From a virus, in the IMG/VR virus record IMGVR_UViG_3300025118_000006, positions 1 to 64,000 of that record: a stretch of 64,000 nucleotides of DNA; one strand, 5' to 3'. Positions within the stretch are counted from its first letter, which is position 1. Each line of letters starts with the position of its first letter. The notes beneath the pieces were generated by a model. The model ran no database searches, had not been told where the DNA came from, and saw only the letters and a program-made list of their open reading frames with translations. A program made the translations under genes and the position numbers. This document shows positions 3,830 to 18,970 of the stretch, in pieces.

Positions 3830-4365
3830 AGTTCGATATCGTGTACGCGGACCCGCCTTGGGACTACAAAGGCCAAAAGCAGCACACAGGTGCCGGGGGC
3901 GTGTCCTCTGGAGGCGCAATCGAGCACTACTCTACACTGACCCTCGGACAGCTTAAAAAGCTACCTGTAAGCGAAATCTGTGCGAATGACTGCCTTTTGT
4001 TCATGTGGGCTACCAGCCCGCATCTTGATCAGGCTATTGACCTGCTGAAGGCGTGGGGCTTCAAGTGGGCAACCGTTGGGTTTGTCTGGAACAAACTGCG
4101 AGTAAATCCAGGCTTCTACACGATGTCGCAGTGCGAGATTTGCTTGATTGGAAAGCGTGGGAAGATACCTCAACCAAGAGGTGCCAGGAATATCAGACAG
4201 TTAGTCGAATCTGCGAGGGCTGACCATAGCGCAAAACCGAAGGAGGTTCGCAGACGCATCGAGCAGATGTTCCCGACGCAAAATAAGGTTGAGCTATTCG
4301 CACGAGAGCCTTCGAGCGGGTGGAGCGTTTGGGGTGATGAGGTCGAGAGCGATATCAGCATATAA
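3826..4365 (+). CDS. MT-A70-family adenine methyltransferase
   Basis: IVYADPPW, LFMWAT, AWGF, HSAKP and ELFAR motifs. Confidence 0.92.
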   Translation: MKFDIVYADPPWDYKGQKQHTGAGGVSSGGAIEHYSTLTLGQLKKLPVSEICANDCLLFMWATSPHLDQAIDLLKAWGFKWATVGFVWNKLRVNPGFYTMSQCEICLIGKRGKIPQPRGARNIRQLVESARADHSAKPKEVRRRIEQMFPTQNKVELFAREPSSGWSVWGDEVESDISI

Positions 4366-4403
4366 AAAAAGCCCCCCGAACCGTGCGCCGTCTCGGGGGG
4401 CTT
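4364..4403 (-). terminator. intrinsic terminator (U-tract on the minus strand; possibly bidirectional)
   Basis: 11-bp stem AAGCCCCCCGA/TCGGGGGGCTT, with A7 at 4364-4370, between convergent genes. Confidence 0.85.
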
Positions 4404-4453
4404 ATACAGACAATACCGCTTCTGGGAAGGGAGAAACGGTGAGGTAAGCTGCC
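4364..4453 (-). ncRNA. candidate trans-acting antisense sRNA (sRNA-R) against the replication initiator leader
   Basis: Own promoter-like element and terminator; 5' GCUUACCUCA and loop CCCUUCCC are complementary to 12380-12389 and 12345-12352. Confidence 0.6.
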
Positions 4454-4458
4454 TCATT

Positions 4459-4487
4459 ACACTGCCAAAAAACCTACTTTTGGTCAA
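4459..4487 (-). promoter_or_regulatory. sigma70-like promoter for the candidate sRNA
   Basis: TTGACC-17-CAGTGT with extended TG, the same layout as TTGACA-17-CAGTTT at 8986. Confidence 0.5.
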
Positions 4488-4960
4488 CGATTCGAGTGCC
4501 GTCTCCACAACCTCCGATACTTTTTTGATGCGCGAACAACGCTCTTCGCCCAGCGAAAAGACTTAGTGTGCTCACCTTTGCATCGACCAGAGTTGTACGA
4601 GCAGATAGCCCACTCCAATCCGTGCTTCCTCTCAAACCGGCTTCTAAAGCGATTTAACGCACGAACGCCAGCCTCGACCAGATCGCAATCGCGAGTTGAT
4701 CGGCTTTCACACCAGATTCTCGGAATGACCTGAAGTGGCCCCACAGCACCACGGTGGCTGCGTACAACATCACCACGCCGGTTGAGGTATTGCATCCTGC
4801 TTTCGTGCCAGGATAGCGCGGTTACAAGGAAGGGGTCTTCGCCTTGGCGTTCAGCCTCGTTTACTAAAAGAATGCAAGTTGACTCGCGTTCTTGCCGGAC
4901 GTTTTCGTTCAACGCCGGAAGAAACTGCGTCAACATCGCGCAATAGAGCAGTGCGTTCAT
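4484..4960 (-). CDS. lytic transglycosylase (SLT/lysozyme-like fold) with hydrophobic N-terminus
   Basis: Catalytic HESR, GAVGPLQV and YNSG motifs; AAGGAG SD. Confidence 0.82.
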   Translation of the reverse strand: MNALLYCAMLTQFLPALNENVRQERESTCILLVNEAERQGEDPFLVTALSWHESRMQYLNRRGDVVRSHRGAVGPLQVIPRIWCESRSTRDCDLVEAGVRALNRFRSRFERKHGLEWAICSYNSGRCKGEHTKSFRWAKSVVRASKKYRRLWRRHSNR

Positions 4961-5067
4961 TTTGACTCCTTTTCGATTACATCAATCACTTTTGCGTTAG
5001 CGGGGTACCTTGCCACAAGCTCTGCGAGTTTTGCCAGCGTTAATGCCATTATTTTCTTTTTCATCAT
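4957..5067 (-). CDS. 36-aa peptide MMKKKIMALTLAKLAELVARYPANAKVIDVIEKESK (not in the ORF track)
   Basis: GGAG SD; ATGA overlap with the SLT start. Confidence 0.5.
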   Translation of the reverse strand: MMKKKIMALTLAKLAELVARYPANAKVIDVIEKESK

Positions 5068-5091
5068 ATTCTCCACGAGTTGTTATTGCTC

Positions 5092-5164
5092 TACGCTAAC
5101 CGATAATCGCGCCGCGTCAAAAAAAATCAATGTGTTGACAATGCCACCGCCCCGGATGTAATTT
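5092..5164. promoter_or_regulatory. divergent sigma70-like promoters
   Basis: Minus: TTGACG(5120)-17-TAGCGT; plus: TTGACA(5135)..TGTAAT/TAATTT; A-tract between them. Confidence 0.55.
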
Positions 5165-5170
5165 AACGTC

Positions 5171-5470
5171 ATGATTATAGTTATTTTAATATTGCTTGGT
5201 GCGCGAGCCTATCGCGCTGAAAATGTTGGCTTGGGCACACTCTTTGAGCGCATGGCTTCAATCTGTGCGGTCATCGCTCTTGTAGGCATACTTTACACTG
5301 GCGTGTACTACTCGTCTGCGACTGTAGACCACGCGAGCGCGGAAGCGCGTGTGGAGCTACTGAAAGGCCAGCCACCAGAGGTTTCGCAAGACGCGGTCGG
5401 TGAATCCGCTGCTGCAATTGAAAGGAAGAGGCTATCGGTACGGTGGCTCATCTTTTTTGTCGTAATTTAG
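5171..5470 (+). CDS. small membrane protein, possibly from a leaderless mRNA
   Basis: Hydrophobic segments; ATG directly after the -10 element. Confidence 0.5.
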   Translation: MIIVILILLGARAYRAENVGLGTLFERMASICAVIALVGILYTGVYYSSATVDHASAEARVELLKGQPPEVSQDAVGESAAAIERKRLSVRWLIFFVVI

Positions 5471-5479
5471 GAGAATCAA

Positions 5480-6286
5480 ATGACTAACGTAGACCACCTT
5501 TCATGCTTGTCTTACTCTATACCTGACGAAGGCCCACCGATGGACCTTGCTGACACCGAGGTTTTGAGCACCCTGCTTGGTCGTGAAATGCACGCGATAT
5601 CCGATTGGCGATGTGTTCATTTAGCCGCGAAGCGAGTATTTCCTTCTAAAGGCACACAATTGGTACGTGACCGGCGGTCAAGGATGCTCGCCAAGGTCAC
5701 AGTTACGGAGCGGGTGAAAAGCAAATCGCGAAGGACGGAGTTTAAGGTAGCTGATAACTTTGAGGTTACGTGTGACCGCGATGATCCACGGGTCGGCGCG
5801 TTCCAGTCCCACCTAAAAGCACTTTCCGGGTCGTTCGACATGGAGTGCCTTCGATTCGCGCTTCTAAACCTGATGGAAGAAGAGGGCTGCGTTATGCTCC
5901 GCTCCGGTGGTGGCCTTTACTGGGTTCCGGCAGACGCGAGGGTGCGCTTCTCGAAGGTTCATGAGGCCGCCGCGTCTGTAGGCGCGGAAATCGACGTTTT
6001 CAGGCTACAAGACGACCCAGACACCGTTTCTTGGCTTGCGAAGCAGGCTGTGAGAGGGCTGGAAAGCGATTGGTCCAGGGTCCAGAAGGAAATGGCACGC
6101 TCGCGGTTCGTGAGGTCTTACCTGTTGGCTGGACGCTTTCGTGGTCGAGCCGAGGGCGCAGCGTGCGCGGACCTCGTACCAACACACCGAAAGAGCAAGC
6201 TGGACATGCTCCAGGCGGTAGATCGCCGGATGGCTGAGATACAGGCTGAAAACCCTGTCGCAATAGCTAAATCGAAGGCGGTCTAG
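5480..6286 (+). CDS. hypothetical protein
   Basis: AGGAG SD; 268-aa ORF. Confidence 0.7.
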   Translation: MTNVDHLSCLSYSIPDEGPPMDLADTEVLSTLLGREMHAISDWRCVHLAAKRVFPSKGTQLVRDRRSRMLAKVTVTERVKSKSRRTEFKVADNFEVTCDRDDPRVGAFQSHLKALSGSFDMECLRFALLNLMEEEGCVMLRSGGGLYWVPADARVRFSKVHEAAASVGAEIDVFRLQDDPDTVSWLAKQAVRGLESDWSRVQKEMARSRFVRSYLLAGRFRGRAEGAACADLVPTHRKSKLDMLQAVDRRMAEIQAENPVAIAKSKAV

Positions 6287-6364
6287 CCAGTGCACCCGTT
6301 CGCAACCACTTGACAATACTAGGGAAACGTGGTAAGCTCCAGTTAAACCAATTGGAGTTTGTCT

Positions 6365-6613
6365 ATGGTAGATCGCAAGAAAATCCGAGGACGGTGGTAC
6401 TCCATCGTCGAAGACGTGCCCAAGGCGGGTGACTACGTCTTCTACTATGACCGAGGCTGGCGCGGAGGCTTCATTGACCGGGTCCACAACGGACGCAAGC
6501 ACAGGTACGTAGTGATAGCCCCGATGAAGCTAAAGATCGGCAGGAAGAACCACGTAATTCGACCAAAGAAAAAAGTCGAACTGCGTGCAATCAGAGAAAT
6601 CTGCCGCCGATGA
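6365..6613 (+). CDS. small basic hypothetical protein
   Basis: TTGACA..TAAGCT promoter from 6310 and TTGGAG SD. Confidence 0.55.
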   Translation: MVDRKKIRGRWYSIVEDVPKAGDYVFYYDRGWRGGFIDRVHNGRKHRYVVIAPMKLKIGRKNHVIRPKKKVELRAIREICRR

Positions 6614-6667
6614 CAGTGGCGCAGTAAGTCTTTCGCAACTTTTTTTCAGAAAAGTGTTAGCAAGGAG

Positions 6668-6736
6668 TTGACAACACCACCAGCCGTATGCTCTAAATCG
6701 TATGGTGACGTTAATAACTTATTTGGAGAACAGAAA
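6668..6736 (+). promoter_or_regulatory. early promoter plus conserved leader A (GTGACGTTA...TTGGAGA)
   Basis: TTGACA 6668, GTGACGTTAA 6705, TTGGAGA 6723, ATG 6737. Confidence 0.75.
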
Positions 6737-7198
6737 ATGACTGAGACTTTCACATTCAAAATCGCAGAAACGAAACTCAACCCCCACTCGAAACAGCAGC
6801 GCGAAGCCGATGTGTATTGCGAGCTTTGCGGGCGCGGCATTTGGCAACGAAACAACGCGCACGTCGTGTTGACTGGAGACGAATCGAGGGAAGAGCGTCT
6901 AAGAAGCGGCAGTGTGACCCTGGAGAAGTTCGATAAAAGCCTACTCGGCACTGACTCTGCTGAATGGGGCATCTTCGTTGGGTCGCGCTGCGCGAAGCAA
7001 ATCCCTCGCGAGTTCAAGGTGTCGCAAAAGGTTGTCATGAAGCACGTCTTCGATGCCGCAAGGCGTCAAGCGACGGCATCGAAGGAAGAGCGTGATCAGT
7101 TGGATAGCGATTGGAACGAACGCTTTCTGGCTGGAGCAACCGCTGAGGAAAGAGCCGAGTGGAATCAAGTTCTCGCACTCGCTAAGGAGGTGTCCTAA
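6737..7198 (+). CDS. early hypothetical protein (CxxC ... C)
   Basis: Start reassigned to the ATG after the SD. Confidence 0.7.
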   Translation: MTETFTFKIAETKLNPHSKQQREADVYCELCGRGIWQRNNAHVVLTGDESREERLRSGSVTLEKFDKSLLGTDSAEWGIFVGSRCAKQIPREFKVSQKVVMKHVFDAARRQATASKEERDQLDSDWNERFLAGATAEERAEWNQVLALAKEVS

Positions 7199-7794
7199 TG
7201 AACACATTAAACACCACACCGGGTCGGCGCTACCCCGTCCAATTTAAAGTTCGCGTGATTGTAGACCAGCCAGCCCTTGGCCGAGACTTCTATGGCGAGG
7301 CTCGCTTCGCCACAGAGGAGGAGGCCCAGGCGGCATTGCGGGATGCGAGAATCGAAGTTACCGACAGCGGGCCTAGCTGTACACAGTACAGCAAGTGGGA
7401 CTACTCCGACCGGACCCTTCTGGTTGAGGACACACCCAACGCTCGCGCCTTCGTCGAGAAGCACTCGTACACTCACCTCGACGCTATGATGCGCGACACC
7501 CTTCGTGCAGTCGCCAGCGAGGGCGGTGCAGTTGAGGAGATGCTTTCAGACATCGAGGGGCGCATTGTGGAGGGCAGCTTATTAGACCGACTGATGCCCC
7601 TGGGTAACCCGCATTATATGCTTCCCGGCATCCCGTCGCCTGCGATGATTGGCGAGGACGTGAAGCTAGAGCTTCGTGCGCTGGCTATCGCTACTGACCT
7701 CGTGGTCACGGGTAACGTGCAACGTAGGCGCGGACGCATCAGCAGATTGCAGAACAAATTAGACCGGGCCGGTTATGGCCCGGTGGGAGGTTAG
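7198..7794 (+). CDS. early hypothetical protein
   Basis: AAGGAGG SD; TAATG coupling. Confidence 0.7.
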   Translation: MNTLNTTPGRRYPVQFKVRVIVDQPALGRDFYGEARFATEEEAQAALRDARIEVTDSGPSCTQYSKWDYSDRTLLVEDTPNARAFVEKHSYTHLDAMMRDTLRAVASEGGAVEEMLSDIEGRIVEGSLLDRLMPLGNPHYMLPGIPSPAMIGEDVKLELRALAIATDLVVTGNVQRRRGRISRLQNKLDRAGYGPVGG

Positions 7795-7796
7795 TC

Positions 7797-8534
7797 ATGG
7801 TTAAGAAACCCGTTTTCAAGTTCACCGAAGAGAAGCCTCACCCGTGGCCTGATGCGCCCGCGCCTATCAAGGCCATCGAGCGCCGCTTGCTCATGGCCAA
7901 GAAGGCTGCGGAAAAGGAGTACGCCGATTTAACTGAGATGCTGTTAGACGATGTCCTGGCAAACTTTTGGGATACGATGCTGGAGCAGCTTACAGCTTGC
8001 GAAGACCCGCTACCGCTCATCACACAGACACCTCCAAAGGCCCCTAAAGCGCCCCCAGTTCGCCCAAACGACTTTTGGGAAGGGTACACCAGCGTTAAAA
8101 ACCGCGCCGCCCGCGAGAGGGCTGTTCTGGAGGCGATGAACGGTCACTGGTTTGAGGCAAACAGCCGGTCTGCCTCAAACATCGGTGCGCCCGCGCAAAA
8201 GTTACGCTCGATTCTAGCTGGCCTGGAAGAGACTGGTCGCGTCGAGACTCGACGCGGGCGGTTGGCAGGAAAGGGCCGCGTCACACAATACCGAGCGGTC
8301 CTAGCGTGGGGTTCAGTGGATTCAAGCTCCACAAGAGCGCGTGAGGAGTTAGAGGTGCTAGAGGTCTTGCAGCGGTGGCGCAGCGCAAAGCAAGCGAAAG
8401 AACAGCTTGGCGCAGACCTGCCCAAGAAAAAGGTCGATGCGGCTATCGCTCGACTGTACGCCAACAACAAACTCGCTCGACGCTCAGGACAGACCGGGTC
8501 CGTCGAGTATATAACGAAGGAGAATTCGAGATGA
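7797..8534 (+). CDS. hypothetical protein with two possible winged-HTH repeats
   Basis: GGAGG SD; two RE..VLE...W...L...G.[VL]..R...G....Y segments. Confidence 0.6.
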   Translation: MVKKPVFKFTEEKPHPWPDAPAPIKAIERRLLMAKKAAEKEYADLTEMLLDDVLANFWDTMLEQLTACEDPLPLITQTPPKAPKAPPVRPNDFWEGYTSVKNRAARERAVLEAMNGHWFEANSRSASNIGAPAQKLRSILAGLEETGRVETRRGRLAGKGRVTQYRAVLAWGSVDSSSTRAREELEVLEVLQRWRSAKQAKEQLGADLPKKKVDAAIARLYANNKLARRSGQTGSVEYITKENSR

Positions 8535-8929
8535 AAGTATTTAAATGCACGTATAAACACACTATTGGCGAAGCCTCAGTTACCTGCGATGCGCCCATCA
8601 ACTGGGAGGGCAAGGGCAGGCACCCGAAGTATTGCGAGGCCCATAAAGGTGGCAAGGAACACCCGAGCCACTACGAAATCTGGGGCCACAGGGTGTTGAG
8701 TCGGGAAAAGTCTGTGACGGAAGGGTACAAGGCTATGCCATCGTTCGACGAGCCGGTTTACGCGGAGCCAGAGCTACTCGACACCGCCAAGACCTCGAAG
8801 GAGGCTAACTTTATGCGAATGGAATATGCGTTCGCCTTCAACCGTGCCAAGGGTGCTCGCCGTGAGTTCGGAATTGACCCCTGGAAAATTGAGATCGTTG
8901 CGTACTATCATGGGCAGGGGGGAGGTTAA
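8531..8929 (+). CDS. hypothetical protein (Cys/His-containing N-terminus)
   Basis: AAGGAG SD; ATGA coupling. Confidence 0.6.
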   Translation: MKVFKCTYKHTIGEASVTCDAPINWEGKGRHPKYCEAHKGGKEHPSHYEIWGHRVLSREKSVTEGYKAMPSFDEPVYAEPELLDTAKTSKEANFMRMEYAFAFNRAKGARREFGIDPWKIEIVAYYHGQGGG

Positions 8930-8985
8930 ATTCGATGCACTGCTCCCCACTCGAAAATAAAGTTACTGAAAACGCTTGCAAGGTG

Positions 8986-9048
8986 TTGACAACGCCACCT
9001 TCTTATGGCAGTTTTGTGAACGTGACGTTAATTGATTGGAGATTAAAG
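8986..9048 (+). promoter_or_regulatory. early promoter plus conserved leader B
   Basis: TTGACA 8986, GTGACGTTAA 9022, TTGGAGA 9036, ATG 9049. Confidence 0.75.
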
Positions 9049-9318
9049 ATGACTAAGCGAAAAGCAAAATTGATTGAAGACGCTCGGGCCGCTGGCTTTG
9101 AGGTCAACGAGGGCACGCAAGGCGAGTGGCATTTCGAGCGATGGAGCAAACACAAGAAGTCTCGCTACGGCAACGGTGGCCCGCGACTTCTTGCCGGGAT
9201 GACTCTTTACGAGTATCCCGGCACTGCGATCTCAAAGATGTGCGACCTTGTCGATGCCATTGGCATTCAGAGTTATGCACAGATGCGTTCAGTGCTGGGC
9301 TTGGGCAAGGAGGTTTAA
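9049..9318 (+). CDS. early hypothetical protein
   Basis: ATG after the leader SD. Confidence 0.65.
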   Translation: MTKRKAKLIEDARAAGFEVNEGTQGEWHFERWSKHKKSRYGNGGPRLLAGMTLYEYPGTAISKMCDLVDAIGIQSYAQMRSVLGLGKEV

Positions 9319-9319
9319 G

Positions 9320-9592
9320 ATGACTATCGAAATAGAAACATACATCTTGGATGCAGACCGTGAAGAGTTGGAGGTCGTCGTTGAGGTGACCAAGTACAGC
9401 TACGACGGTGGCTACGCTGGCTACACTTACGGGCCTCCGGGGCAGTGCTATCAGGGAGAAGGCGCGACTGCTGAACTCGAAGAGTATGTCATTCGAGATG
9501 CTAACACGAGCAAGGTTATCGCATTGGAGCTTCAAGAAGAGGACCGTGCTTCTATCGAAGAGCGGATTTGTGAGATTGAGGCCGAGCGATGA
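9320..9592 (+). CDS. acidic hypothetical protein
   Basis: AAGGAGG SD; YGPPGQCY..E segment. Confidence 0.65.
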   Translation: MTIEIETYILDADREELEVVVEVTKYSYDGGYAGYTYGPPGQCYQGEGATAELEEYVIRDANTSKVIALELQEEDRASIEERICEIEAER

Positions 9593-9873
9593 AACCCTGT
9601 GCCTACGACCCTGCGAATGTCGAGCATTTGATTGCTGACCTTTCGACGAAGAGGGAGTGCTCAGTTTGCCACTCTCTCTTCGAGCCGGGGGAGCACTACA
9701 AGCGCGTGACCTGGGATAATGTAGCCGGTGTGGTGGTGAGCTTTTACCACTGGATCGGTTGCAGCGAGAAGGCCGAGTCTTCGGGTGAAGATTGGCTTCA
9801 TGAGAATTGTTCAGGCGACCCGAAGAACATTGAGGCCGCCGTTGATTTTGTTAAGAAATTGCAAGGAGATTAG
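9589..9873 (+). CDS. hypothetical zinc-binding protein
   Basis: CxxC...HxxxC; coupled ORF. Confidence 0.6.
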   Translation: MKPCAYDPANVEHLIADLSTKRECSVCHSLFEPGEHYKRVTWDNVAGVVVSFYHWIGCSEKAESSGEDWLHENCSGDPKNIEAAVDFVKKLQGD

Positions 9874-10310
9874 TGATGATTAAGAAGTTTACAGACGAAG
9901 AAATTAACGCAGTTGAAGAGTTGTCACTGAAGATGTCGGCTGCTGCACGAAGCCTGAACGAAGAGATAAAGGCGTTCAATCGGGTGATTGCGAATCGATA
10001 CGTTGAAGTTGAGCTTGAGCGTGAAAAGTACGAGAAGCTTGTAGTTGAGTCGCGCAACCTCCTCGCGAATCTTTGGGGTCGAGTTTTTCACACGGTTCGG
10101 GAGGCAACAGAGTTGAATGGTCCGAAGTGGATGCGAACCGACGAAGGCCAGAACCTCACGTACTGGATGGACCTGCTGAATCACCACTTTGAGGTTGAGG
10201 AATTGGAAGTCCACACGCCGGGTGTTTTTCCAGAGATGCAGCCGCAAGAAGACCTCTCGCACAACCTTGACGTGCCGATGTCGCTTGAGGAACTCGCAAA
10301 CAGGTTTTAG
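9873..10310 (+). CDS. hypothetical coiled-coil protein
   Basis: AGGAG SD; W..T.EGQ....W motif. Confidence 0.65.
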   Translation: MMIKKFTDEEINAVEELSLKMSAAARSLNEEIKAFNRVIANRYVEVELEREKYEKLVVESRNLLANLWGRVFHTVREATELNGPKWMRTDEGQNLTYWMDLLNHHFEVEELEVHTPGVFPEMQPQEDLSHNLDVPMSLEELANRF

Positions 10311-10311
10311 T

Positions 10312-10340
10312 TTGACGCCAGCGACCGGCTGGCTTATCTA
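10312..10340 (+). promoter_or_regulatory. sigma70-like promoter
   Basis: TTGACG-17-TATCTA immediately after the stop codon. Confidence 0.55.
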
Positions 10341-10345
10341 ACGTG

Positions 10346-10438
10346 TACTTCGCTGGGTCAACCGTTGCGGGGTACCGAAGGGGTCTGCGCGGGTTCTCCA
10401 ATCTAAGAACGTCACAACCGCGCAGGCCCTCTTTTTTT
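10346..10438 (+). ncRNA. candidate sRNA / attenuator RNA (sRNA-E) antisense to early-operon leaders
   Basis: 13-bp stem 10380-10392/10418-10430 plus T7; 10395-10415 is the reverse complement of leader B at 18 of 21 nt. Confidence 0.65.
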
Positions 10439-10455
10439 CAGGGAAGGACACACAC

Positions 10456-11844
10456 ATGGACCCAAAAGCGTTTCCAAATTCGCTACAGGCTGAGCAGGCG
10501 ATTTTAGGCACAGTATTATTAGACCCTCAAACATACATTCTCATTGGTGAGAAGATATCCCCAGACGATTTTTTCAAGACCGCACACGGTGTCATTTGGC
10601 AGGCCGTCAAGAAGGTAGTGAAGGACGGTCGGAATCCAGACGCTACCGAGGTTATCGACCGGCTAACCCTCGCACATGAACTCGATGTTGTCGGTGGTGC
10701 GACATACGTGATGGAACTACTTGACCATACGTGCGTGCCAGTCATCGCTGAACAATATGTAGACATAATCAAAGCGCATTCGCTTCGTAGACAATTAATC
10801 CTAAACGCACACAAAATTGCGAAGGCTGCTAGGACCGAAGAGGCCCCGGACTCCGTTGCGGCAACCGCGATCCAATCGCTCTTGACGACCGTCGAGGACC
10901 GGGATGAGCCCGAGGCCAGACCAGCCGCCGACATCGTTACCGAGCGCCTCGCTAAAACGAAGGAAGCATTGGAACGAGAAGAGAGCAGCATCGGAATTCC
11001 TAGCGGTTACGATAAGTTAGACGAACTCACTCTTGGATTTCACGGTGGAAACTACATTGTAGTGGCGGCTCGACCGGGAATGGGAAAAAGCGCGTTCGCC
11101 CTAAGCCTATCGCTTAACGCAACACGAAAAGATAGATCTGTCGCATTCGTGTCCCTTGAGATGTCCGAAGAGCAGATGGCAGACCGGCTCATGGCGATGG
11201 AGTCGGGTGTGTCTATGCAGAACATTAGGCGAGGGGATATCAGCGAATACGATGTTGGTAGACTTGAGAAGGGCGCTAGGAATATCCAGCCTCTCCCGCT
11301 GTACATCTCAGTCCAGACCAGAATCAATATCGATGGGCTTAGGATGTTCGCTCGTCGAATGAAAATGCGTAACCAATGTGACATGCTTATCATCGACTAC
11401 CTCCAGCTAGTAATGCCCAGGAAAGGCTTTGGCAATCGAGAACAGGCGGTAGCTGATATGAGCCGGACCATCAAGGCTATCGCTCTTGAGCTAGACATCC
11501 CCATCATCGCGCTGGCTCAACTTAATCGTCAGGTTGACGGGAGGGCTAGTAAGCGGCCTATACTCTCGGACCTGCGAGAGTCTGGCTCAATCGAGCAGGA
11601 TGCTGACGCCGTTATGTTCCTGTATCGAGATGAGGTCTACGACCCGAATACTCAGGACAAAGGGAAGGCTGAAGTTATTGTAGCAAAGCAGCGCAATGGC
11701 CCAACCGGAATCGTCACACTTGACTTCGATGCTGAACGTAACATTTTTAAGAACGAGAATCCTTACATTCCAAATCATTCCTATTCACACACTACTACTA
11801 CCCAGGCCCAAGTTTGGGCCAATCGCTATGGAGATGACAGATGA
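10456..11844 (+). CDS. dnaB: replicative DNA helicase DnaB
   Basis: AEQAILG N-domain, AARPGMGKS Walker A, SLEMS, IIDYLQL, LAQLNR, DLRESGSIEQDAD, KQRNGPTG. Confidence 0.97.
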   Translation: MDPKAFPNSLQAEQAILGTVLLDPQTYILIGEKISPDDFFKTAHGVIWQAVKKVVKDGRNPDATEVIDRLTLAHELDVVGGATYVMELLDHTCVPVIAEQYVDIIKAHSLRRQLILNAHKIAKAARTEEAPDSVAATAIQSLLTTVEDRDEPEARPAADIVTERLAKTKEALEREESSIGIPSGYDKLDELTLGFHGGNYIVVAARPGMGKSAFALSLSLNATRKDRSVAFVSLEMSEEQMADRLMAMESGVSMQNIRRGDISEYDVGRLEKGARNIQPLPLYISVQTRINIDGLRMFARRMKMRNQCDMLIIDYLQLVMPRKGFGNREQAVADMSRTIKAIALELDIPIIALAQLNRQVDGRASKRPILSDLRESGSIEQDADAVMFLYRDEVYDPNTQDKGKAEVIVAKQRNGPTGIVTLDFDAERNIFKNENPYIPNHSYSHTTTTQAQVWANRYGDDR

Positions 11845-12320
11845 CCCAGCCAATTGACCTTTCACCAAGACCCCAGCTTTCACCAGAAGAGGCCGCAGTC
11901 GTAAACGCAGCCCAACAGCTTGTTCCTATCTACCAAAAAATGGCCGAAGCGGGACTCGTTGACGGTGAAATAACACTGAACGCCATCGTGCTTACAGCTA
12001 CCCGAATCGGTATCGACACGATGATAAACCACGCTATTTCGCAGGGTTACATGGAAGACCCTCGCGTTGCCGCAGCCGCCGAAAGCGCAAGCAAAGAGGG
12101 CTACATGGGTGACCTTGAACGGCGCGATACCGAGGCCGCCAACCAGACCGAAGAGGAAGAGGCCATTGCCGAAGCCGATGCCGATGAGCTTATGGAAATG
12201 GACAGCGATGCCGTTGAGGAGGCCGCCAAAGACCTGTGCCCACCGACTGACCTTGCAGAGCTTCCAGAGCCCTCCGAGGCACTTTCACAACCGCTTGACA
12301 ACGTGGCAGAGCAAGCGTAG
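11841..12320 (+). CDS. acidic hypothetical protein
   Basis: ATGA coupling to dnaB; GGAG SD. Confidence 0.65.
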   Translation: MTQPIDLSPRPQLSPEEAAVVNAAQQLVPIYQKMAEAGLVDGEITLNAIVLTATRIGIDTMINHAISQGYMEDPRVAAAAESASKEGYMGDLERRDTEAANQTEEEEAIAEADADELMEMDSDAVEEAAKDLCPPTDLAELPEPSEALSQPLDNVAEQA

Positions 12321-12390
12321 AAACGAGTGATGGGCGGTATGCGTGGGAAGGGACGCGCCGCCCATCACTACAAGCTAAATGAGGTAAGCC
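12295..12390 (+). promoter_or_regulatory. promoter and structured 5' UTR of the initiator gene
   Basis: TTGACA-17-TAGAAA; hairpin 12326-12369 with loop GGGAAGGG; SD TGAGGT at 12380. Confidence 0.65.
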
Positions 12391-13476
12391 ATGACCAGCG
12401 AAAAGGTATGTGTTTTTCGGCCCTGGAGAGCGTTTCAGGGGGCACACATCCCGATGGTCATCCTAACTGCTAACGACCTAAGCCCAGGCGCAAAGTTGCT
12501 ATGGGCGTTACTAGCTAAATATGCCGGGGAGAACGGTGCAGCGTACCCCAAGCAGCGCAAACTAGCCGAAGACATGGCCGTGAACATCAAAACCCTACGC
12601 AAGAGGCTCGAAGAGCTAACCAGCAAGGGCTACATAGTTCAAAGTAGAGACAGGGGTGACCGACGGGCACACAAGCCGTTTAATTATCAGTTCATCTGGA
12701 GAGACGAGTTTGAACCCGGACTTTTAAGGCCGTTGTCGGCATTGCGCCGGGTTGAAGTGGAGGTCCATAGGGATGGTACTCCACTCGAAGTCCACAAGGG
12801 TGGCACTCCAGAAGAAAACCCCACGGGTGGACCTCCAATCGAGAGCCCCACGGGTGGTACTCCTATCGAGTACCATACGGGTGGTACTCCAGAGCAGAAT
12901 GAGTTGCCTGAAATCGAGGCCCTCGAAAACCATACGGGTGGACCTGCGGATGTCCATACGGGTGGTTCTCGAATTAATAGGAGTCAAGAGATTCAATTAA
13001 GAGAATTAGAACAAAACCCCCTAACCCCCTTGCAGGGGGAACCTTCGGCTGAAGATGATTGGCCGGGTTTTCCATTTGAAGAGATACGCGAAGCGTACAA
13101 CTCTGTAGCGAAGGTCGAGGGGTGGGTCGTGATGCGTAAGCGCGAGCGTCCACCCAGGGGTAAGCGTGAGCATAAAGTCATCCGAGAGTTGCGTGCCCAG
13201 TGGAAACGCCACAAATCCTCTGTATGCGAGGTTTTGGATGTTTCGGGTACAGAATGGTTCGAGAGGTACTTTCAGGCGTGTAGAGGCTATGTTACGTGGG
13301 ATTGGAGGCCACATCTTGAGTATTGGGCGAGGCTAGATACAGAGGAGGCTATTTTGGACCGCAAGAATAGTGTCTCCCAATTTCCTTCTTCTTCTGGTAG
13401 ACTGGGGGCAGCTTATCAATCGCTTATGAACGCTGCCGACCGAGTAACTGAGATGCAGGAGAGTGAAAATGGCTAA
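12391..13476 (+). CDS. phage replication initiator (N-terminal wHTH, internal iterons)
   Basis: LSPGAKLLWALL....AYPKQRKLAEDM..N.KTLRKRLEEL..KGYI; central repeats; NPLTPLQGE linker. Confidence 0.8.
   Translation: MTSEKVCVFRPWRAFQGAHIPMVILTANDLSPGAKLLWALLAKYAGENGAAYPKQRKLAEDMAVNIKTLRKRLEELTSKGYIVQSRDRGDRRAHKPFNYQFIWRDEFEPGLLRPLSALRRVEVEVHRDGTPLEVHKGGTPEENPTGGPPIESPTGGTPIEYHTGGTPEQNELPEIEALENHTGGPADVHTGGSRINRSQEIQLRELEQNPLTPLQGEPSAEDDWPGFPFEEIREAYNSVAKVEGWVVMRKRERPPRGKREHKVIRELRAQWKRHKSSVCEVLDVSGTEWFERYFQACRGYVTWDWRPHLEYWARLDTEEAILDRKNSVSQFPSSSGRLGAAYQSLMNAADRVTEMQESENG
12757..12968 (+). repeat. about seven iteron-like repeats (27-nt period, core CMYACGGGTGG), probable replication origin
   Basis: Repeats read directly from the sequence, followed by an AT-rich stretch at 12970-13017. 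Confidence 0.75.
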
Positions 13477-14005
13477 CCCTAGAACCATAGCTTCCGCGAT
13501 AACACGCCTAATTGCAGCCGGGTTTAGACCTCCTGCGGGCATAGATATGAACGATCAAGAAGGTCAGACTGCCTTCATCGCTGTTTGGTCTGATGCGCTT
13601 TCAGACATCGAAGACCACGAGTTGAATTCGGCGGTGCGAGCTTTTATTAAAACATCGATGGAGCCTTGGTTCCCGGTGCCCGCAAAGTTGAGGTCGTTGG
13701 TACCTCGCGTGAGTCTGTCGATAATAGATGACTCAGCAGATGCTTTTAGTGAAGTGCTGTCTTTGGTTGGTCGCTTCCACCACTACAAGCACCCGTCGCT
13801 TAAAGACTTGGATACGAATCCAATCCGCGCTCGCGCAAAGTCGAGGGCCATTAAGTCTGTTGGTGGTTGGGAGAGGATATGTGAAAGCAGGTCAGGTGAC
13901 CGTGCGCTCATGTCAGCTTTTCGCCAGTCGTATAAGACATCGGCTGCTGCTGCTACAGCTACAGCCTTGGAGAGTGGTGGCTCGAAGATGTTGGGAGTCG
14001 GCTGA
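13469..14005 (+). CDS. helicase loader/inhibitor-like protein
   Basis: Directly after the initiator; W...L.D......AV...I......FPVPA.L motif. Confidence 0.6.
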   Translation: MANPRTIASAITRLIAAGFRPPAGIDMNDQEGQTAFIAVWSDALSDIEDHELNSAVRAFIKTSMEPWFPVPAKLRSLVPRVSLSIIDDSADAFSEVLSLVGRFHHYKHPSLKDLDTNPIRARAKSRAIKSVGGWERICESRSGDRALMSAFRQSYKTSAAAATATALESGGSKMLGVG

Positions 14006-14370
14006 TGGTTGGAAAGGATTCTTTCGCAATCGTAAAAAAAGTTGCGCTTTTGGCCGCAATTCTTGGGGTGTCGGCTGTAAATTCGAGCTATTCGCACACT
14101 TCTTGGCACGATGCTTACGTTATGCATAAGTGCGAAACTTGTCCAGACTGTTGCGTATCCGCGCACAAAGAAGAGCCAATGGATATCGCGTGCAGTTTTT
14201 TGATGGACCTCACAGCCCCTTATCCAATCGATACCGCAGATTGGTGTGACAGACCTGGGTTCATGGAGCCGGATCAGCGGGTGTGTTGTGTTTGGGACGA
14301 AGAGTATATGTGGTGCACGGGCATTCAGAACCCATGTAGCGGGTGGGAGTACATTGAAGATGGCTGTTAA
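14005..14370 (+). CDS. Cys-rich protein with predicted signal peptide
   Basis: KKVALLAAILGVSA followed by about ten cysteines. Confidence 0.55.
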   Translation: MVGKDSFAIVKKVALLAAILGVSAVNSSYSHTSWHDAYVMHKCETCPDCCVSAHKEEPMDIACSFLMDLTAPYPIDTADWCDRPGFMEPDQRVCCVWDEEYMWCTGIQNPCSGWEYIEDGC

Positions 14371-14929
14371 GAAGACACCAGCGAAGCGAAAGAAGAAGGT
14401 AGTTCAGAAGCGGAACACAGGCCGAAGAACAGCCGCCGAGGTTGAGATTCTGAAGTCGCAGGCGAAGACCGCAATTCTCCGAGGTGCCACCGCACATGAA
14501 TGCTGCAAAAATATGGGCGTGGACCGGAACACCATGAACAGGTGGCTCGTAGACATACATGCTGAGTGGAGCCAGAGTGTAGAGCCGGAACGATTAGAGG
14601 CCGAGCGAGCGCGACTGATAGCAGAGGCAAGGGAGGTTCAAAGAGACGCTTGGACCTTCGCCAATTTATTGATTGATGAAACTCAGGCCAGAGAAAGAAG
14701 GGGCTGGATGGGGTTGGTGCTGGCAAGCATCAAGCAGCAGTCGGAATTGCTTGGTCTGAATAAAGTTAATATCCAGGCTATAAGCACAGAAATCAACATG
14801 CAGCAAAACAACATAAACCAAGCCGACATGAGGCTACTCGACAAGATACCAGACAACGTGCTAGACAGCCTGGGTACCGCAGTAGCGAGAGCCATGAGTG
14901 ACAACGTCGTTGTCCTCGACACAGATTAG
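14360..14929 (+). CDS. terS: terminase small subunit-like protein
   Basis: Basic N-terminus, HTH (GATAHECCKNMGVDRNTMNRW), helical core ending in ELLGL. Confidence 0.55.
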   Translation: MAVKKTPAKRKKKVVQKRNTGRRTAAEVEILKSQAKTAILRGATAHECCKNMGVDRNTMNRWLVDIHAEWSQSVEPERLEAERARLIAEAREVQRDAWTFANLLIDETQARERRGWMGLVLASIKQQSELLGLNKVNIQAISTEINMQQNNINQADMRLLDKIPDNVLDSLGTAVARAMSDNVVVLDTD

Positions 14930-15169
14930 GCGAAAAGGCTTGCTACGACTGGTTGACCGGACTGGGTAGCTGTGATTCGTATTGTCCACCCGGTTTAAGC
15001 TTGCACTCGTCCTTGTGTGGGCTGGCCAGAGGTATCTAACTCACTCCTTCAAGGTCCATTTCTGGTTGGAACGCTAGTGAGTCAGTCGCATTGCCCAAAG
15101 AGGCCCCGGCCTTCGAGGGTATGCGTACATTTTGGTGACTTGCGGGCTCACCTCTTGTAGAATTCGAGT

Positions 15170-15496
15170 ATGAGCCAAGACTTGCTAAAAGAGCTATTGG
15201 ACTTTGGCGCACTGGGAATCTTCGCTGGGTTTTTGGTGTGGCAGCATCTCGGAATGCAGAAGCGGCTGGACCGTTCGGTTGGTGACTTTCACGCAGGACT
15301 AAAGCGTAACACCGAGTTCTTCGACGAGCGCACAAAGATGATTAGTGACCGACACGACGCTGCAATCGGCGCAATGCGTGAAGATCATCGTGCGGAACGC
15401 GAGAGGCTAGAGCAGAAGGTTTCAGAGCTTCAGCGCGATCTTCTAACTAGAGAGCGAGAATCGTTGATGCACTTTAAGTTAAAAAGAGATTCGTAG
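15170..15496 (+). CDS. membrane-anchored coiled-coil protein (holin-like), probably leaderless
   Basis: Single TM segment FGALGIFAGFLVW; GTGACT-17-TAGAAT ends 6 nt before the ATG. Confidence 0.65.
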   Translation: MSQDLLKELLDFGALGIFAGFLVWQHLGMQKRLDRSVGDFHAGLKRNTEFFDERTKMISDRHDAAIGAMREDHRAERERLEQKVSELQRDLLTRERESLMHFKLKRDS

Positions 15497-15587
15497 AAGT
15501 GTGTTTTTAAGCACATTTTCTGGCTTATATTTTATAGACAGTCTGGGTCTACGCGGGTACCCTCCGTGGGCACTCGATGGAGCAACA

Positions 15588-15659
15588 ATGGAAGTTCTCG
15601 AATTCTACAGCATGTGCCTTTGGGTCGCAGTCCTTCATTGCTTAACGGTCTGGAAATAA
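15588..15659 (+). CDS. 23-aa hydrophobic peptide MEVLEFYSMCLWVAVLHCLTVWK
   Basis: GGAG SD; stop two nt before the next ATG. Confidence 0.35.
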   Translation: MEVLEFYSMCLWVAVLHCLTVWK

Positions 15660-15661
15660 AC

Positions 15662-15937
15662 ATGGAAGCAAACCTTGGAAACCGAGTGCAAGGAATCATC
15701 GTCGCACTCATTGTGGCCGCCATAATCGGTGGCTGGAACTGGATGCAAGATATGACGACGCGGGTTGCCTTGCTCGAAGATGACCTCACAGAAACAATAG
15801 AGGTCTTGCACACGATCAACAGACCTCTTCGCCAAAGGCCGAAGGCAGAACGCGACGTAGTCGAGCGCAAGCGTAGAAAGCAATCGAAGCGTGCAAAGCG
15901 CCGAAGCCAGCTAAAAGCTTTGAGTAACACCCCGTGA
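15662..15937 (+). CDS. small membrane protein with basic tail
   Basis: TM segment IIVALIVAAIIGGW. Confidence 0.55.
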   Translation: MEANLGNRVQGIIVALIVAAIIGGWNWMQDMTTRVALLEDDLTETIEVLHTINRPLRQRPKAERDVVERKRRKQSKRAKRRSQLKALSNTP

Positions 15938-16189
15938 CCCAAATCTGGGACTCGGCAACGTGGGTGATTCACTGGCAGGTTATCATCGGTAACATCGAGC
16001 CAGAGGCTATACCTATCGGGTATCTGGTTGATGCCCTCTACGGCACCGACTATCCGAGGGCCTAGAAGTGGTCGGCCAGGTCGCGATCATCAATCGCGCT
16101 CGTCTCTTCCGGTCCATTCATTCTATCCCCCTACAGAAGGCAACAGCCCCACCCAACAGTCCAACGTAAATAGGCGGGGCTGCGTGCCT

Positions 16190-16423
16190 TCATTCCTCGT
16201 TTCGTTTTTGAAGCTCTGAAATAAGCTCCGAGAATCCATCCAGTTCGTCATAGAGCTTACGGACCTTCTCTGCAAGCACCTTTGTTTCGTCTGTTAGTTT
16301 CCAGACTGCCTCTTGATGCTCTGCGTAAGTGTGTCCAATCGCAGCACAAAGCTGCTCAGTGGTTAGGTCACTGGGTATCTTTGCGGTACCGTCTTCGTCC
16401 ATAAATATTATCATTGCATACAC
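16190..16423 (-). CDS. hypothetical protein
   Basis: GAGGT SD; part of the leftward block. Confidence 0.55.
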   Translation of the reverse strand: MYAMIIFMDEDGTAKIPSDLTTEQLCAAIGHTYAEHQEAVWKLTDETKVLAEKVRKLYDELDGFSELISELQKRNEE

Positions 16424-16776
16424 CTCTCAGGTACGAAGAGTACGTCGCCAACCAACTCGAATCCGACCCGGTCGGATGCTGATAGGTTCGGGGGAAGCTC
16501 TTTGAGCCTGCCATCCTCGTTGAAGACCGCCACCCATCGAGGTGCGTACTTCTTGACCTCCACATAGCCTCCTACGTGCCTCTGAAGCTCGTCTAAGGCG
16601 AAGTGTTTGCCATCCACGGGTCGAACTATGTCTATCGAGCCAGTGGCTCGATAGAGGAAAGCCTCAGTCGATTTAGAACGCGCCATCATATCCTCCGTAA
16701 TCTTGTAACAATCTTTGCAGACCTCGTTACCAGCGGGGATGCGAGCCGCGCAACTAAAGCACACTATTTCTGCCAT
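16411..16776 (-). CDS. DUF3846-like protein with N-terminal zinc ribbon
   Basis: LDELQRHVGGYVE...NEDG...LPPN..AS...LVGDVL; GGAGG SD. Confidence 0.75.
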   Translation of the reverse strand: MAEIVCFSCAARIPAGNEVCKDCYKITEDMMARSKSTEAFLYRATGSIDIVRPVDGKHFALDELQRHVGGYVEVKKYAPRWVAVFNEDGRLKELPPNLSASDRVGFELVGDVLFVPERCMQ

Positions 16777-16778
16777 GA

Positions 16779-17228
16779 TTAACCTCCATCCGACTTGTAT
16801 TTTAACACCCCGAAGCGCAAAGACCACTCTTCTGTGGTCACTCGCTCTGGTAGCGCGTAGCGGCGGCCCTTGTAGTTGATGGCGATGATGTCACCGGCCA
16901 CTCCAACCGGATCGAACCGGATTGGCTCACCCTCGGGCACATCGATAGCCAGCGTTTTAAAAAGCTCTTCGACGTTGAGCCGATATTTTAGCTGCCTTGA
17001 AAGAGCCTCTCGCTCCGCGTACCGGCCTTCAAGCCGATTAATTAACTCATCTCTTTTACTCATTGCGCCCTTAGCCTCCGTGCTCGGGTTCATCGATAGC
17101 CTAAGCTTGTCGGCTATATAAAATTGGAGATCCGAGGTAAGGCTTTTTGGGATGTTGGCGACCGCCTTATCTCTGTCGTAGTCGTGTTCTGACATGAGTC
17201 GGTCTGCCCATATTTTATCTTCAGTCAT
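16779..17228 (-). CDS. hypothetical protein
   Basis: AAGGAG SD. Confidence 0.6.
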   Translation of the reverse strand: MTEDKIWADRLMSEHDYDRDKAVANIPKSLTSDLQFYIADKLRLSMNPSTEAKGAMSKRDELINRLEGRYAEREALSRQLKYRLNVEELFKTLAIDVPEGEPIRFDPVGVAGDIIAINYKGRRYALPERVTTEEWSLRFGVLKYKSDGG

Positions 17229-17242
17229 GATCGTTGTGCTCC

Positions 17243-17644
17243 TTACGCAAGACATTGTTCTTTTTCATCGACCCATGCTTCTGATCGAGGGGCCACCATC
17301 GCGGGCAGAACCGTGAGGCTCGGAAAGTGTTCAGCGAGGAAAGTGTCGATCACAGCCATCGCCGCTTCTTTTGTGTCTTCGATACCGCTGGTGCAGCGAC
17401 CATCGCCGTCGGGGCAGCTTTTGTAGCCCCAACCATTGGTTCCACCGTGCGCGTCTCCGAAGCCGCCTAACCAAGAGGTCACGATTGCGACCTGCTTCCC
17501 CATCCCATTGACTCGGACGAATTTCGGTGGATAAGAAGAATCGGGTGCCCACGGAAGAACCACCTTGGCTAAGACCTTCTGGGCTTCACGTATGGAACTG
17601 GGGTCTTGGGTGTCGAAGGATTTAAGGTTATTAGTGACCATCAC
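17243..17644 (-). CDS. hypothetical protein
   Basis: AAGGAGG SD. Confidence 0.6.
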   Translation of the reverse strand: MMVTNNLKSFDTQDPSSIREAQKVLAKVVLPWAPDSSYPPKFVRVNGMGKQVAIVTSWLGGFGDAHGGTNGWGYKSCPDGDGRCTSGIEDTKEAAMAVIDTFLAEHFPSLTVLPAMVAPRSEAWVDEKEQCLA

Positions 17645-17651
17645 AGCCTCC

Positions 17652-18119
17652 TTATTTCTGGCAATTCAGCAGCTTGGTGTTGCCGTAAATGTCACGAATG
17701 ACCGTGAACGGTGAGGTGTTTGGCTCATCAGGAACGGCCTCAATAAGGGCAGTCTTCACGTAGGTTTCTTCGCCTGTCTCGGCGCAGAAAATCTTTGTCA
17801 GGCCGCCGGTCTTGTTTCCGTAGCCAAGTTGAGCAGCGGTGCGAGCGCGGAGCACGGTGTAGGTCCGGTCGCGATGAAGCATAACCGACACCGACCTTGG
17901 CGCGAGCCGTGTCTCGCCAGCACTGTTCAGTCCATGCGAGCGGGGGCTGTCGTACCAAGCGTTACGCTCGTCTTGCGTAATAGGTCGGCTGGAATGAACT
18001 GTTCCGTCCATGTCGTTGCCATAGGTTTCGAGGGGATACTCAAGCTCGCCACCCTCTTTGTTGGTGAAGCACTTGGCTACGTTTAATCGAACGATGGTAT
18101 TTTTGAGAATCTTAGTCAT
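17652..18119 (-). CDS. early hypothetical protein
   Basis: Start reassigned to the ATG after leader C. Confidence 0.7.
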   Translation of the reverse strand: MTKILKNTIVRLNVAKCFTNKEGGELEYPLETYGNDMDGTVHSSRPITQDERNAWYDSPRSHGLNSAGETRLAPRSVSVMLHRDRTYTVLRARTAAQLGYGNKTGGLTKIFCAETGEETYVKTALIEAVPDEPNTSPFTVIRDIYGNTKLLNCQK

Positions 18120-18190
18120 TTTCTGTCTCCAATCAAGATTTGCTAACGTCACATTCAGGATTATAGGCATAGCCCTGGGGGCACGGTCAA
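18120..18190 (-). promoter_or_regulatory. early promoter plus conserved leader C
   Basis: TTGACC 18190, TATAAT 18165, GTGACGTTA 18152, GATTGGAGA SD. Confidence 0.75.
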
Positions 18191-18725: not shown

Positions 18726-18907
18726 TACTTAACCTCCACTGGCTCGGCTACGGCTTTGCCAAGCGTCCATACACCGCCCATCGACTCGACCATCTCGTAT
18801 AGTGAGCGGTGGAACTTGTAGCGGCAATCATCAACGCTATTCGCGATGTACGTTACGTTTTCTTCGCCACTGTTGACGGGCGCAAGGTCTGTGATTCTAA
18901 CTTTCAT
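18725..18907 (-). CDS. early hypothetical protein (60 aa)
   Basis: Start reassigned to the ATG after leader D. Confidence 0.6.
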   Translation of the reverse strand: MKVRITDLAPVNSGEENVTYIANSVDDCRYKFHRSLYEMVESMGGVWTLGKAVAEPVEVK

Positions 18908-18970
18908 TTTTTTCTCCAAATAAATTAACGTCACCCGATAAGTTATAAGCCCTACCAAGCCTGTAGTCAA
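18908..18970 (-). promoter_or_regulatory. early promoter plus conserved leader D
   Basis: TTGACT-17-TATAAC, GTGACGTTAA 18934, TTGGAGA SD. Confidence 0.8.

Follow-up and report, generated by a model that had tools for sequence, protein, structure and literature searches.

The 64,000-nucleotide stretch of DNA analyzed here, referred to below as the window, comprises the opening 64 kb of the IMG/VR virus record IMGVR_UViG_3300025118_000006, and the subject of this analysis is a pair of intergenic sites in its early and replication regions. Site A is the untranslated stretch at the 3' end (3' UTR) of a leftward operon and the candidate source of an RNA (RNA A) complementary to the leader of the replication initiator gene; site B lies directly in front of dnaB and would give a second RNA (RNA B) that is antisense to a leader shared by five early operons. 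The whole record is 78,499 bp long, and its two ends (1-208 and 78292-78499) overlap by 208 bp with 207 of 208 positions identical, so it is a complete circular assembly of ~78,291 bp; its catalogue entry gives a linear genome with an estimated completeness of 54%. The structural genes are of myovirus type (large terminase, portal, major capsid protein, and tail sheath), and other genes code for SbcC-like and SbcD-like proteins, a Holliday-junction resolvase, two DNA methyltransferases, an amidoligase, and two GGACT proteins. Its replication module consists of a DnaB helicase and an HTH_36 initiator, whose gene contains iteron-like repeats of ~27 bp (12758-12950). No tRNA genes were found, and no Rfam family reached its gathering score in the window. 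DNA of this phage is present in many marine metagenomes.

The five early operons have in common a leader of two blocks, GTGACGTT and ATTGGAGA, separated by a spacer. Each leader follows a sigma70-type promoter composed of an upstream TGTnnnAAAG-like stretch, a TTGAC motif, and a -10 element at a spacing of 17-19 bp. Some 7 nt past the -10 element lies the box GTGACGTT, which a single leader has as GTGACGAA, and after it come a variable spacer of 5-12 nt, the Shine-Dalgarno (SD) block (A)TTGGAGA, and the ATG, often within ATGACTAAG. The tagged promoters start at 6668 (+), 8986 (+), 18190 (-), 18970 (-), and 72888 (+), the last of which is beyond the window and precedes the leader with the variant tag, at 72925. 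The transcription map, transcript ends included, was deduced from the DNA sequence. Several promoter-like sites have no such box, including P5135, P12295, P10312, and P19482 (-; TTGACA-17-TAAATT). Only some of the early operons are thus marked by the box, which is no general promoter feature. At P5135, which has no sense-direction GTGACGTT tag, an inverted TGACGTTAA overlaps the start ATG of the gene for a 99-amino-acid (aa) membrane protein (5135-5470, +).

A scan of IMG/VR for the leader pattern returned four matches that look like chance. In addition, a match to 9028-9068 on a foreign contig pointed to an AT-rich, unrelated IMG/VR phage contig (L086:640-700, -), which has TTAATTTATTGGAGAA...ATGACTAAG in front of a gene. 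This cassette resembles the 3' half of the leaders and has no GTGACG tag, and a cassette of A/T-rich enhancer, SD, and MTK start may be more widespread than the tag.

The complement of the shared leader is found at site B. Positions 10394-10415 read TTCTCCAATCTAAGAACGTCAC, the exact reverse complement of GTGACGTT-CTTAG-ATTGGAGAA, and the antisense match to early operons claimed in a preliminary description of this DNA is thereby borne out for the tag-plus-SD leader of all five operons. The pattern GTGACGTT-N3-14-TTGGAGA has exactly five copies in the genome, namely four leaders and the antisense copy at site B, against a chance expectation of ~0.002 copies (2 x 78,291 x 12 / 4^15). All four sense copies (6705, 9022, 18152-, and 18934-) stand directly behind TTGAC-type promoters and before ATGs. 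When site B is compared with leader 9022, which has the same block spacing, the blocks match at 16/16 positions, the spacer at 2/5, and the flanks not at all (Fisher p ~0.008). Similarity confined to the two blocks argues against a decaying duplicate, and the sequence looks like the product of selection on the two blocks. The opposite reading, in which the box at 10395-10415 belongs to a minus-strand leader, was set aside, since no promoter is seen on the minus strand at site B and the SD-like block there is not followed by a start codon. A second intergenic anti-tag octamer, without an anti-SD block, occurs as AACGTCAC at genome positions 73999-74060 (L001:13999-14060, +), where it overlaps the amidoligase stop codon and is followed by a 12-bp hairpin; it may be due to chance.

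Candidate RNA B is predicted to fold into a 5' hairpin and a long terminator hairpin, with a folding energy of -45.9 kcal/mol over 96 nt (z -5.6 versus shuffles). The long hairpin has a GC lower stem of 12-13 bp (10380-10392/10418-10429), an upper stem of 5-6 bp, an 8-nt apical loop CCAAUCUA, and a 7-nt bulge GUCACAA, so that parts of the anti-SD and anti-tag blocks would be unpaired. Targets of the core UUCUCCAAUCUAAGAACGUCAC were ranked over 7,830 windows, taken from both strands, with an accessibility-aware scan, in which the energy needed to open the two partners is added to the duplex energy. The five leaders give net energies of -9.7 to -21.5 kcal/mol, with leader 9022 as the best predicted partner, compared to a mean of ~+1 (standard deviation ~4, best -8.8) kcal/mol for shuffled leaders, and the leaders hold ranks 1-5, 8, and 13 among all windows.

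The rightward early operon, too, has its 3' end at site B, which follows the stop codon at 10310 of gene 9873-10310. Only 17 nt, SD included, separate its U7 tract from the dnaB ATG, and no promoter is found between the terminator and that ATG. Lacking a promoter of its own, dnaB therefore depends on read-through. Hence, the hairpin antisense to the early-operon leaders is indeed the terminator in front of dnaB, as had been proposed. With the promoter-like site P10312 in front of it, RNA B would be a terminated leader of the dnaB operon. Antitermination of dnaB by the leader RNAs was considered and set aside as kinetically unlikely.

The leftward operon's 3' UTR at site A (4483-4364, -) begins after the stop codon at 4484 of a 158-aa gene, which has a weak SLT match and motifs that we read as SLT catalytic motifs. 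Candidate RNA A is predicted to fold into two hairpins and a terminator (-47 kcal/mol, z -3.4); the plus-strand side of the terminator hairpin has only a weak T tract. Two 10-nt identities link this 3' UTR to the initiator leader: TGGGAAGGGA (4423-4432) recurs at 12344-12353, in the loop of the initiator-leader hairpin, and TGAGGTAAGC (4440-4449) recurs at 12380-12389, on the initiator SD. The RNA A loop CCCUUCCC is the exact complement of the loop in the initiator-leader hairpin, itself a stable predicted structure (-32 kcal/mol, z -4.1) with the predicted start of P12295 at its foot. The same RNA A loop fits the dnaB SD, GGGAAGG. Net energies are -8.2 kcal/mol for the loop block and -4.5 kcal/mol for the SD block against the initiator, and -10.0 kcal/mol for the loop against the SD and translation initiation region (TIR) of dnaB; the initiator TIR ranks 7 of 7,830 as an RNA A target. 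The earlier claim of complementarity to the initiator, and perhaps to dnaB, thus holds at the level of sequence. No other intergenic hairpin with a U7 tract in the whole genome is as stable as those of sites A and B.

Table 1. Coordinates of promoters, leaders, candidate RNAs, and genes around sites A and B
Feature	Position	Strand	Details
RNA A 3' end, intrinsic terminator	4364..4401	-	9-bp G/C stem, inner extension, U7
RNA A stem-loop 2	4415..4440	-	8-nt loop CCCUUCCC (complement of 4424-4431)
RNA A stem-loop 1	4440..4455	-	Anti-SD block GCUUACCUCA (complement of 4440-4449), matches UGAGGUAAGC
Leftward operon	4484..5076	-	39-aa open reading frame (ORF) 4957-5076 and 158-aa lytic-transglycosylase-like gene 4484-4960
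Possible promoter TTGATT-16-GATTAT	~5130-5103	-	Predicted; back to back with P5135
Early promoter TTGACA-18-TAATTT (P5135)	5135..5173	+	ATG of 99-aa membrane protein at predicted +1 (leaderless)
Early promoter and tagged leader (P6668)	6668..6739	+	GTGACGTT 6705, TTGGAGA 6723, ATG 6737
Early 245-aa protein	7797..8534	+	Winged-helix domain at residues ~101-170 in predicted structure
Early promoter and tagged leader (P8986)	8986..9051	+	GTGACGTT 9022, ATTGGAGA 9035, ATG 9049
Promoter-like TTGACG-17-TATCTA (P10312)	10312..10340	+	Predicted; not returned by a consensus promoter scan
Candidate RNA B	10347..10438	+	5' hairpin, long terminator hairpin, U7 at 10432-10438
Anti-leader core UUCUCCAAUCUAAGAACGUCAC	10394..10415	+	Anti-SD partly in 8-nt apical loop, anti-tag partly in 7-nt bulge
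dnaB-type replicative helicase gene	10456..11844	+	SD GGGAAGGA at 10441-10448
Promoter-like TTGACA-17-TAGAAA (P12295)	12295..12323	+	Predicted; within end of gene 11841-12320
Initiator leader	12326..12390	+	Hairpin 12326-12369, loop GGGAAGGG 12345-12352; SD block UGAGGUAAGC 12380-12389
Replication initiator	12391..13476	+	HTH_36; PHROG replication initiation / O-like
Early promoter TTGACC...TATAAT and tagged leader	18117..18190	-	GTGACGTT 18152-18145, TTGGAGA 18132-18126, ATG 18119
Early promoter TTGACT-17-TATAAC and tagged leader	18905..18970	-	GTGACGTT 18934-18927, TTGGAGA 18919-18913, ATG 18907

The best explanation of these features as a whole, which we hold tentatively and judge to fall just short of probable, is that RNA pairing times the early and replication genes in a lytic cycle. 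The five early mRNAs would bear the private 5' tag GUGACGUU at or near their predicted starts, with the SD block (A)UUGGAGA behind it. The rightward early operon would set RNA B free as a stable 3'-end fragment of ~90 nt, or else RNA B would be the terminated dnaB leader, and it would build up during early transcription, perhaps also from a weak promoter of its own. Seeded from the 8-nt loop and the 7-nt bulge, it would then pair in vivo with the leaders, blocking ribosome binding on the first cistrons and exposing the mRNAs to decay; the effect would be negative in sign and delayed in timing, a feedback that closes the early phase. Its hairpin would also be the sole transcriptional gate before dnaB. 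The C-rich loop of RNA A, for its part, would kiss the loop of the initiator leader, after which the anti-SD block would cover the initiator SD; the same loop may also cover the dnaB SD, and synthesis of replication proteins would be limited. The preliminary description saw here a possible switch linking two circuits. Anatomically, the dnaB terminator does link them, but no mutual repression between the RNA A and RNA B circuits is visible, and the arrangement looks like two loops sharing the replication module, with no toggle.

Several observations weigh against control by RNA pairing. Ordinary cofolding yields a gain for leader 9022 alone and none for the other four leaders, because the core is enclosed by the very stable lower stem; pairing would have to be seeded from the loop and the bulge and to involve partial melting of the hairpin, and loop or bulge pairing within a closed stem is a configuration that RNAcofold is unable to represent. 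The promoters of both candidate RNAs are weak or doubtful. The energy rank of RNA A is good, yet not unique, and its two-block match is only moderately unusual genome-wide. All copies of the phage that could be reached are identical, flanks included, and hence uninformative on constraint or covariation, and among the public runs that contain the stretch there is no RNA run. Finally, the tag core TGACGTTA is a near-palindrome, so it could be the DNA site of a protein.

Could the matches be due to chance, with plain terminators, ordinary leader structure, and no RNA-RNA regulation? Collinear double 10-mer matches are common enough to raise this question: shuffled genomes have ~5 direct and 4-5 inverted ones, or ~10 clusters per genome, compared with 20 and 11 in the real genome; counts of 9-mer clusters are at background only. 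Plain duplex energies, calculated without accessibility, are too unspecific and give many equally good false targets, and chance would also fit the lack of expression or conservation evidence. Since double 10-mers are not rare, the argument for site A is one of location. The two partners are both intergenic, with one block in a hairpin loop at either locus and the second block on the SD, and we estimate the joint chance of this at well below 0.01. Site A is moreover next to the strongest terminator of the minus strand, a canonical one. A coincidence would further have to account for a site B pattern expected in ~0.002 copies, for the top target ranks held by the leaders, and for the coincidence of both sites with the two strongest terminators. 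We therefore regard chance as quite unlikely.

The near-palindromic tag core brings up a different reading, in which the boxes are DNA sites for a protein regulator, either a host factor or a protein of the phage itself, with GTGACGTT(AA) at +1 serving as the operator and the hairpins as strong terminators in which such a site is present by accident or was picked up. An early operon does encode a candidate. In the predicted structure of the 245-aa early protein, residues 101-170 form a core of three helices and two strands (H-H-H-strand-strand) with a predicted local distance difference test (pLDDT) score of 70-82, which aligns to ArsR/SmtB, MarR, and PadR winged-helix regulators and to Z-alpha domains (Z 8-9.6; root mean square deviation 1.5-3 over 60-70 residues), and all 50 of the 50 top rows share this fold. 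Feature and sequence hints agree with the winged-helix assignment, and the protein, whose sole homologue among 5.8 billion proteins is 72% identical, is thus a candidate protein regulator on the strength of its model. A second winged-helix domain may lie near its C terminus. An operator would be consistent with the imperfect palindrome TnACGTnA in TGACGTTA, with the inverted copy that overlaps the start of gene 5171 at P5135, with the TGTnnnAAAG-like upstream stretch in all five tagged promoters, and with the GTTGACAAC-CCACC sequence around the -35 element of P6668 and P8986. It leaves unexplained, however, why the copy inverted at site B includes the SD block ATTGGAGAA at the right distance; this copy lies ~55 nt past the nearest promoter-like -10 element, far from any +1. 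Nor does it explain the matches of site A, which are located in hairpin loops and on an SD and not at promoters. Protein operators are therefore, in our assessment, an unlikely explanation. Given the winged-helix gene, and given that most early proteins have no assigned function, the control without proteins suggested as possible in the earlier description is not supported. Among the early proteins, a very basic 82-aa protein (6365-6613, +) contains 24 Lys and Arg residues, and its Atlas model (pLDDT 0.82) resembles small SH3/Tudor-type beta-barrel domains; the protein could bind nucleic acid.

Pairing between RNAs does not by itself imply a separate small RNA (sRNA). In two of the five operons, leader and anti-leader belong to the same predicted transcript, from 6705 or 9022 to 10438, and the 3' hairpin may pair in cis with its own 5' leader, so as to shield the ends or adjust how the first cistron is translated. 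Pairing of 5' and 3' UTRs over an SD has precedent (PMC3868564, PMC5737220). However, the other three tagged leaders (18152-, 18934-, and 72925) are on different transcripts and could be reached in trans only, and RNA A and its target, being on opposite strands and 8 kb apart, could likewise meet in trans only. A purely cis-acting role is thus improbable.

Another question is which stage of the phage life cycle such pairing would serve. The preliminary description offered RNA-based immunity, copy control of a plasmid-like prophage, or an early-to-middle timer, having seen no repressor or integrase in the window. Family scans agree with it on the window, and none of the domains Phage_integrase, Resolvase, HTH_3, ParB_N, AAA_31, and Peptidase_S24 came up in six-frame scans of the complete genome, so that repressor, integrase, and partition genes of these families are missing from the rest of the genome as well. 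In Pfam and PHROG scans of ~45 early ORFs, the only helix-turn-helix (HTH) domain recognized was that of the initiator. Queries with the initiator and the capsid protein found no relatives among 72,556 plasmids, and the initiator has none in one genome each of ~186,000 bacterial and archaeal species. No close relative was found in phage records (queries: region DNA and capsid) or in IMG/VR (queries: DnaB, capsid, initiator, and the 245-aa protein), where the sole copy, L010, is identical, and metagenome contigs queried with DnaB contained no informative relative. Contigs of four marine DNA runs belong to the same phage, with identical elements and flanks. Protein searches gave two real relatives, one on a 2,969-bp ENA contig for DnaB (P0003, 90% identical) and one on a 7,477-bp Logan contig for P0124 (72% identical). 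Most likely, the phage is virulent and uses the host sigma70 RNA polymerase for its early genes.

The absence of recognizable lysogeny and partition genes, and of plasmid or prophage relatives, makes immunity and plasmid copy control unlikely. A protein-free switch of two sRNAs for superinfection immunity or copy control of a plasmid-like prophage would fit the lack of a recognized protein repressor family, the resemblance of loop kissing and SD cover at the initiator leader to plasmid Rep control, and an iteron-bearing initiator and DnaB module of a kind known from temperate phages and plasmids. Set against this are a complete genome devoid of integrase, resolvase, ParA/ParB, and S24 genes, the lack of relatives in the plasmid and species collections mentioned above, the winged-helix early protein, and the lack of visible cross-repression and hence of bistability. 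Furthermore, RNA B would also be made as the tail of operons it would silence, which fits feedback and not the maintenance of a silent state. We consider the switch very improbable: beyond the likeness of site A to plasmid Rep control, nothing speaks for either immunity or copy control. The third option, an early-to-middle timer, fits the lack of lysogeny, partition, and repressor genes and of plasmid or prophage relatives; it also fits the location of the antisense elements at operon 3' ends, whose product would build up with time.

How does a timer based on RNA pairing compare with known systems? A lambda-type CI/Cro arrangement does not apply, since the six-frame scans found no HTH_3 or S24 domain in the whole genome, and the divergent promoters at 5100-5170 are flanked by the 39-aa ORF, the SLT-like gene, and the membrane protein gene. 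The c4 RNA of P1/P7 (RF01695) and the CI RNA of the satellite phage P4 are phage RNAs that, as proposed for RNA B, pair through two short blocks with a leader or ribosome-binding site in transcripts of their own phage and so shut down downstream genes, and they are made from the same transcription unit as their targets, as RNA B would be for some of its targets. The blocks are 8 nt and 8-9 nt long for RNA B against the leaders, and two blocks of 10 nt are found for RNA A against the initiator leader. In contrast, the c4 and CI RNAs belong to temperate elements, serve lysogenic immunity, and act on one operon, whereas this phage has five target operons and, in its complete genome, no integrase, HTH_3, S24, or partition genes that could form an immunity region. 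The RF01695 model has no match at its gathering score in the window and none at E<=1 in 4000-13600. In P1, C4 RNA is needed for full repression of ant (PMC8198154).

RNA A is more reminiscent of the antisense RNAs that control plasmid rep genes (R1 CopA/CopT, IncI/IncB RNAI, and pMV158 RNAII), which end in a terminator, make first contact loop to loop, and inhibit translation of the initiator near its SD (PMC4485353 for pMV158; reviewed in PMC12361487). The same features are predicted for RNA A, with 8-nt loops CCCUUCCC and GGGAAGGG in predicted stable hairpins that pair in silico. Plasmid rep RNAs are, however, transcribed from the strand opposite their target and fully complementary to it, whereas RNA A has its locus at a distance of 8 kb, within an unrelated gene's 3' UTR, matches its target in two 10-nt blocks only, and belongs to a phage replicon without plasmid functions. 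The minus strand of the initiator leader itself has no U tract after the hairpin, unlike a cis-encoded antisense RNA. RNA A also resembles the Rfam family RF02837 (anti-hemB, a Burkholderia sRNA) in its CU-rich loop hairpin and terminator, but it scores 26.3 bits over the full model against a gathering score of 49.5 and misses the middle hairpin, making it a look-alike and no member.

In their position, both candidate RNAs are similar to bacterial Hfq-type sRNAs that are 3'-UTR-derived and share a terminator with their operon, and to the sRNAs of lambda (PreS, LPR2, and 6S) and StxS, which come from operon 3' ends or short leaders and have a GC hairpin, a long U tail, and short seed pairing. 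RNA A follows the stop codon at 4484, RNA B follows that at 10310, and both end in U7. Phage sRNAs of this type are only now being mapped (bioRxiv 10.1101/2024.10.31.621285). The difference is that the characterized targets of PreS are host genes, whereas RNA A and RNA B would target early and replication genes of their own phage. In icaR of Staphylococcus aureus and hbs of Bacillus subtilis, too, an element in the 3' UTR is the complement of the SD region in the 5' leader (PMC3868564, PMC5737220). Both act in cis on a single mRNA, whereas the majority of the targets in this phage belong to other transcripts.

Explanations of temporal control in lytic phages rely almost exclusively on proteins, such as sigma factors, anti-sigma factors, RNA polymerase modifiers, and, in T4, RegA and RegB. 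RegA is a translational repressor of early mRNAs, and RegB is an endonuclease that cuts GGAG in early SD sites. The role proposed for RNA B is the same, a shut-off of early messages through a shared ribosome-binding feature, but the effector would be an RNA in place of a protein, and a private 5' tag is part of what the messages share. A limited literature search found no phage sRNA acting on an early regulon of its own phage and no trans-encoded kissing RNA directed against a phage initiator. In its most far-reaching form, the proposal is one of RNA address tags in a virulent phage, a regulon of five early operons marked by tag and SD and read by an anti-tag hairpin in the terminator that gates the helicase gene, combined with a trans-acting kissing-loop RNA that throttles initiator and helicase; we consider this form unlikely. 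If true, it would be an RNA counterpart of T4 RegA/RegB together with plasmid-style Rep control acting in trans. If early leaders compete for the nascent hairpin, the abundance of early mRNA would be coupled to dnaB read-through. Control by RNA pairing, if real, would also make the locus a compact system in which two RNAs of ~90-120 nt act on five tagged leaders and on a structured leader of the initiator. Because the promoters resemble E. coli sigma70 promoters, the system is testable in E. coli without culturing the phage.

Two further features of the genome were observed. The 12-mer GTGTG[CT]NTTTA[GAT] occurs in 12 copies, where fewer than 1 is expected by calculated chance; examples are at 15499, 21155, 43562, and 50283 (+) and at 5646, 10801, 20805, and 33679 (-). 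Plus-strand intergenic copies are directly upstream of late or structural genes. Those on the minus strand fall within plus-strand genes, dnaB and an early gene among them, and would drive antisense transcription there. The 12-mer is a candidate middle or late promoter or another DNA site. In marine metagenome contigs, dense variants are found in the iteron region of the initiator gene (12758-12983) and in a 70-nt stretch of the MT-A70 methyltransferase gene (4032-4104), and the remainder of 4000-19500 is nearly invariant.

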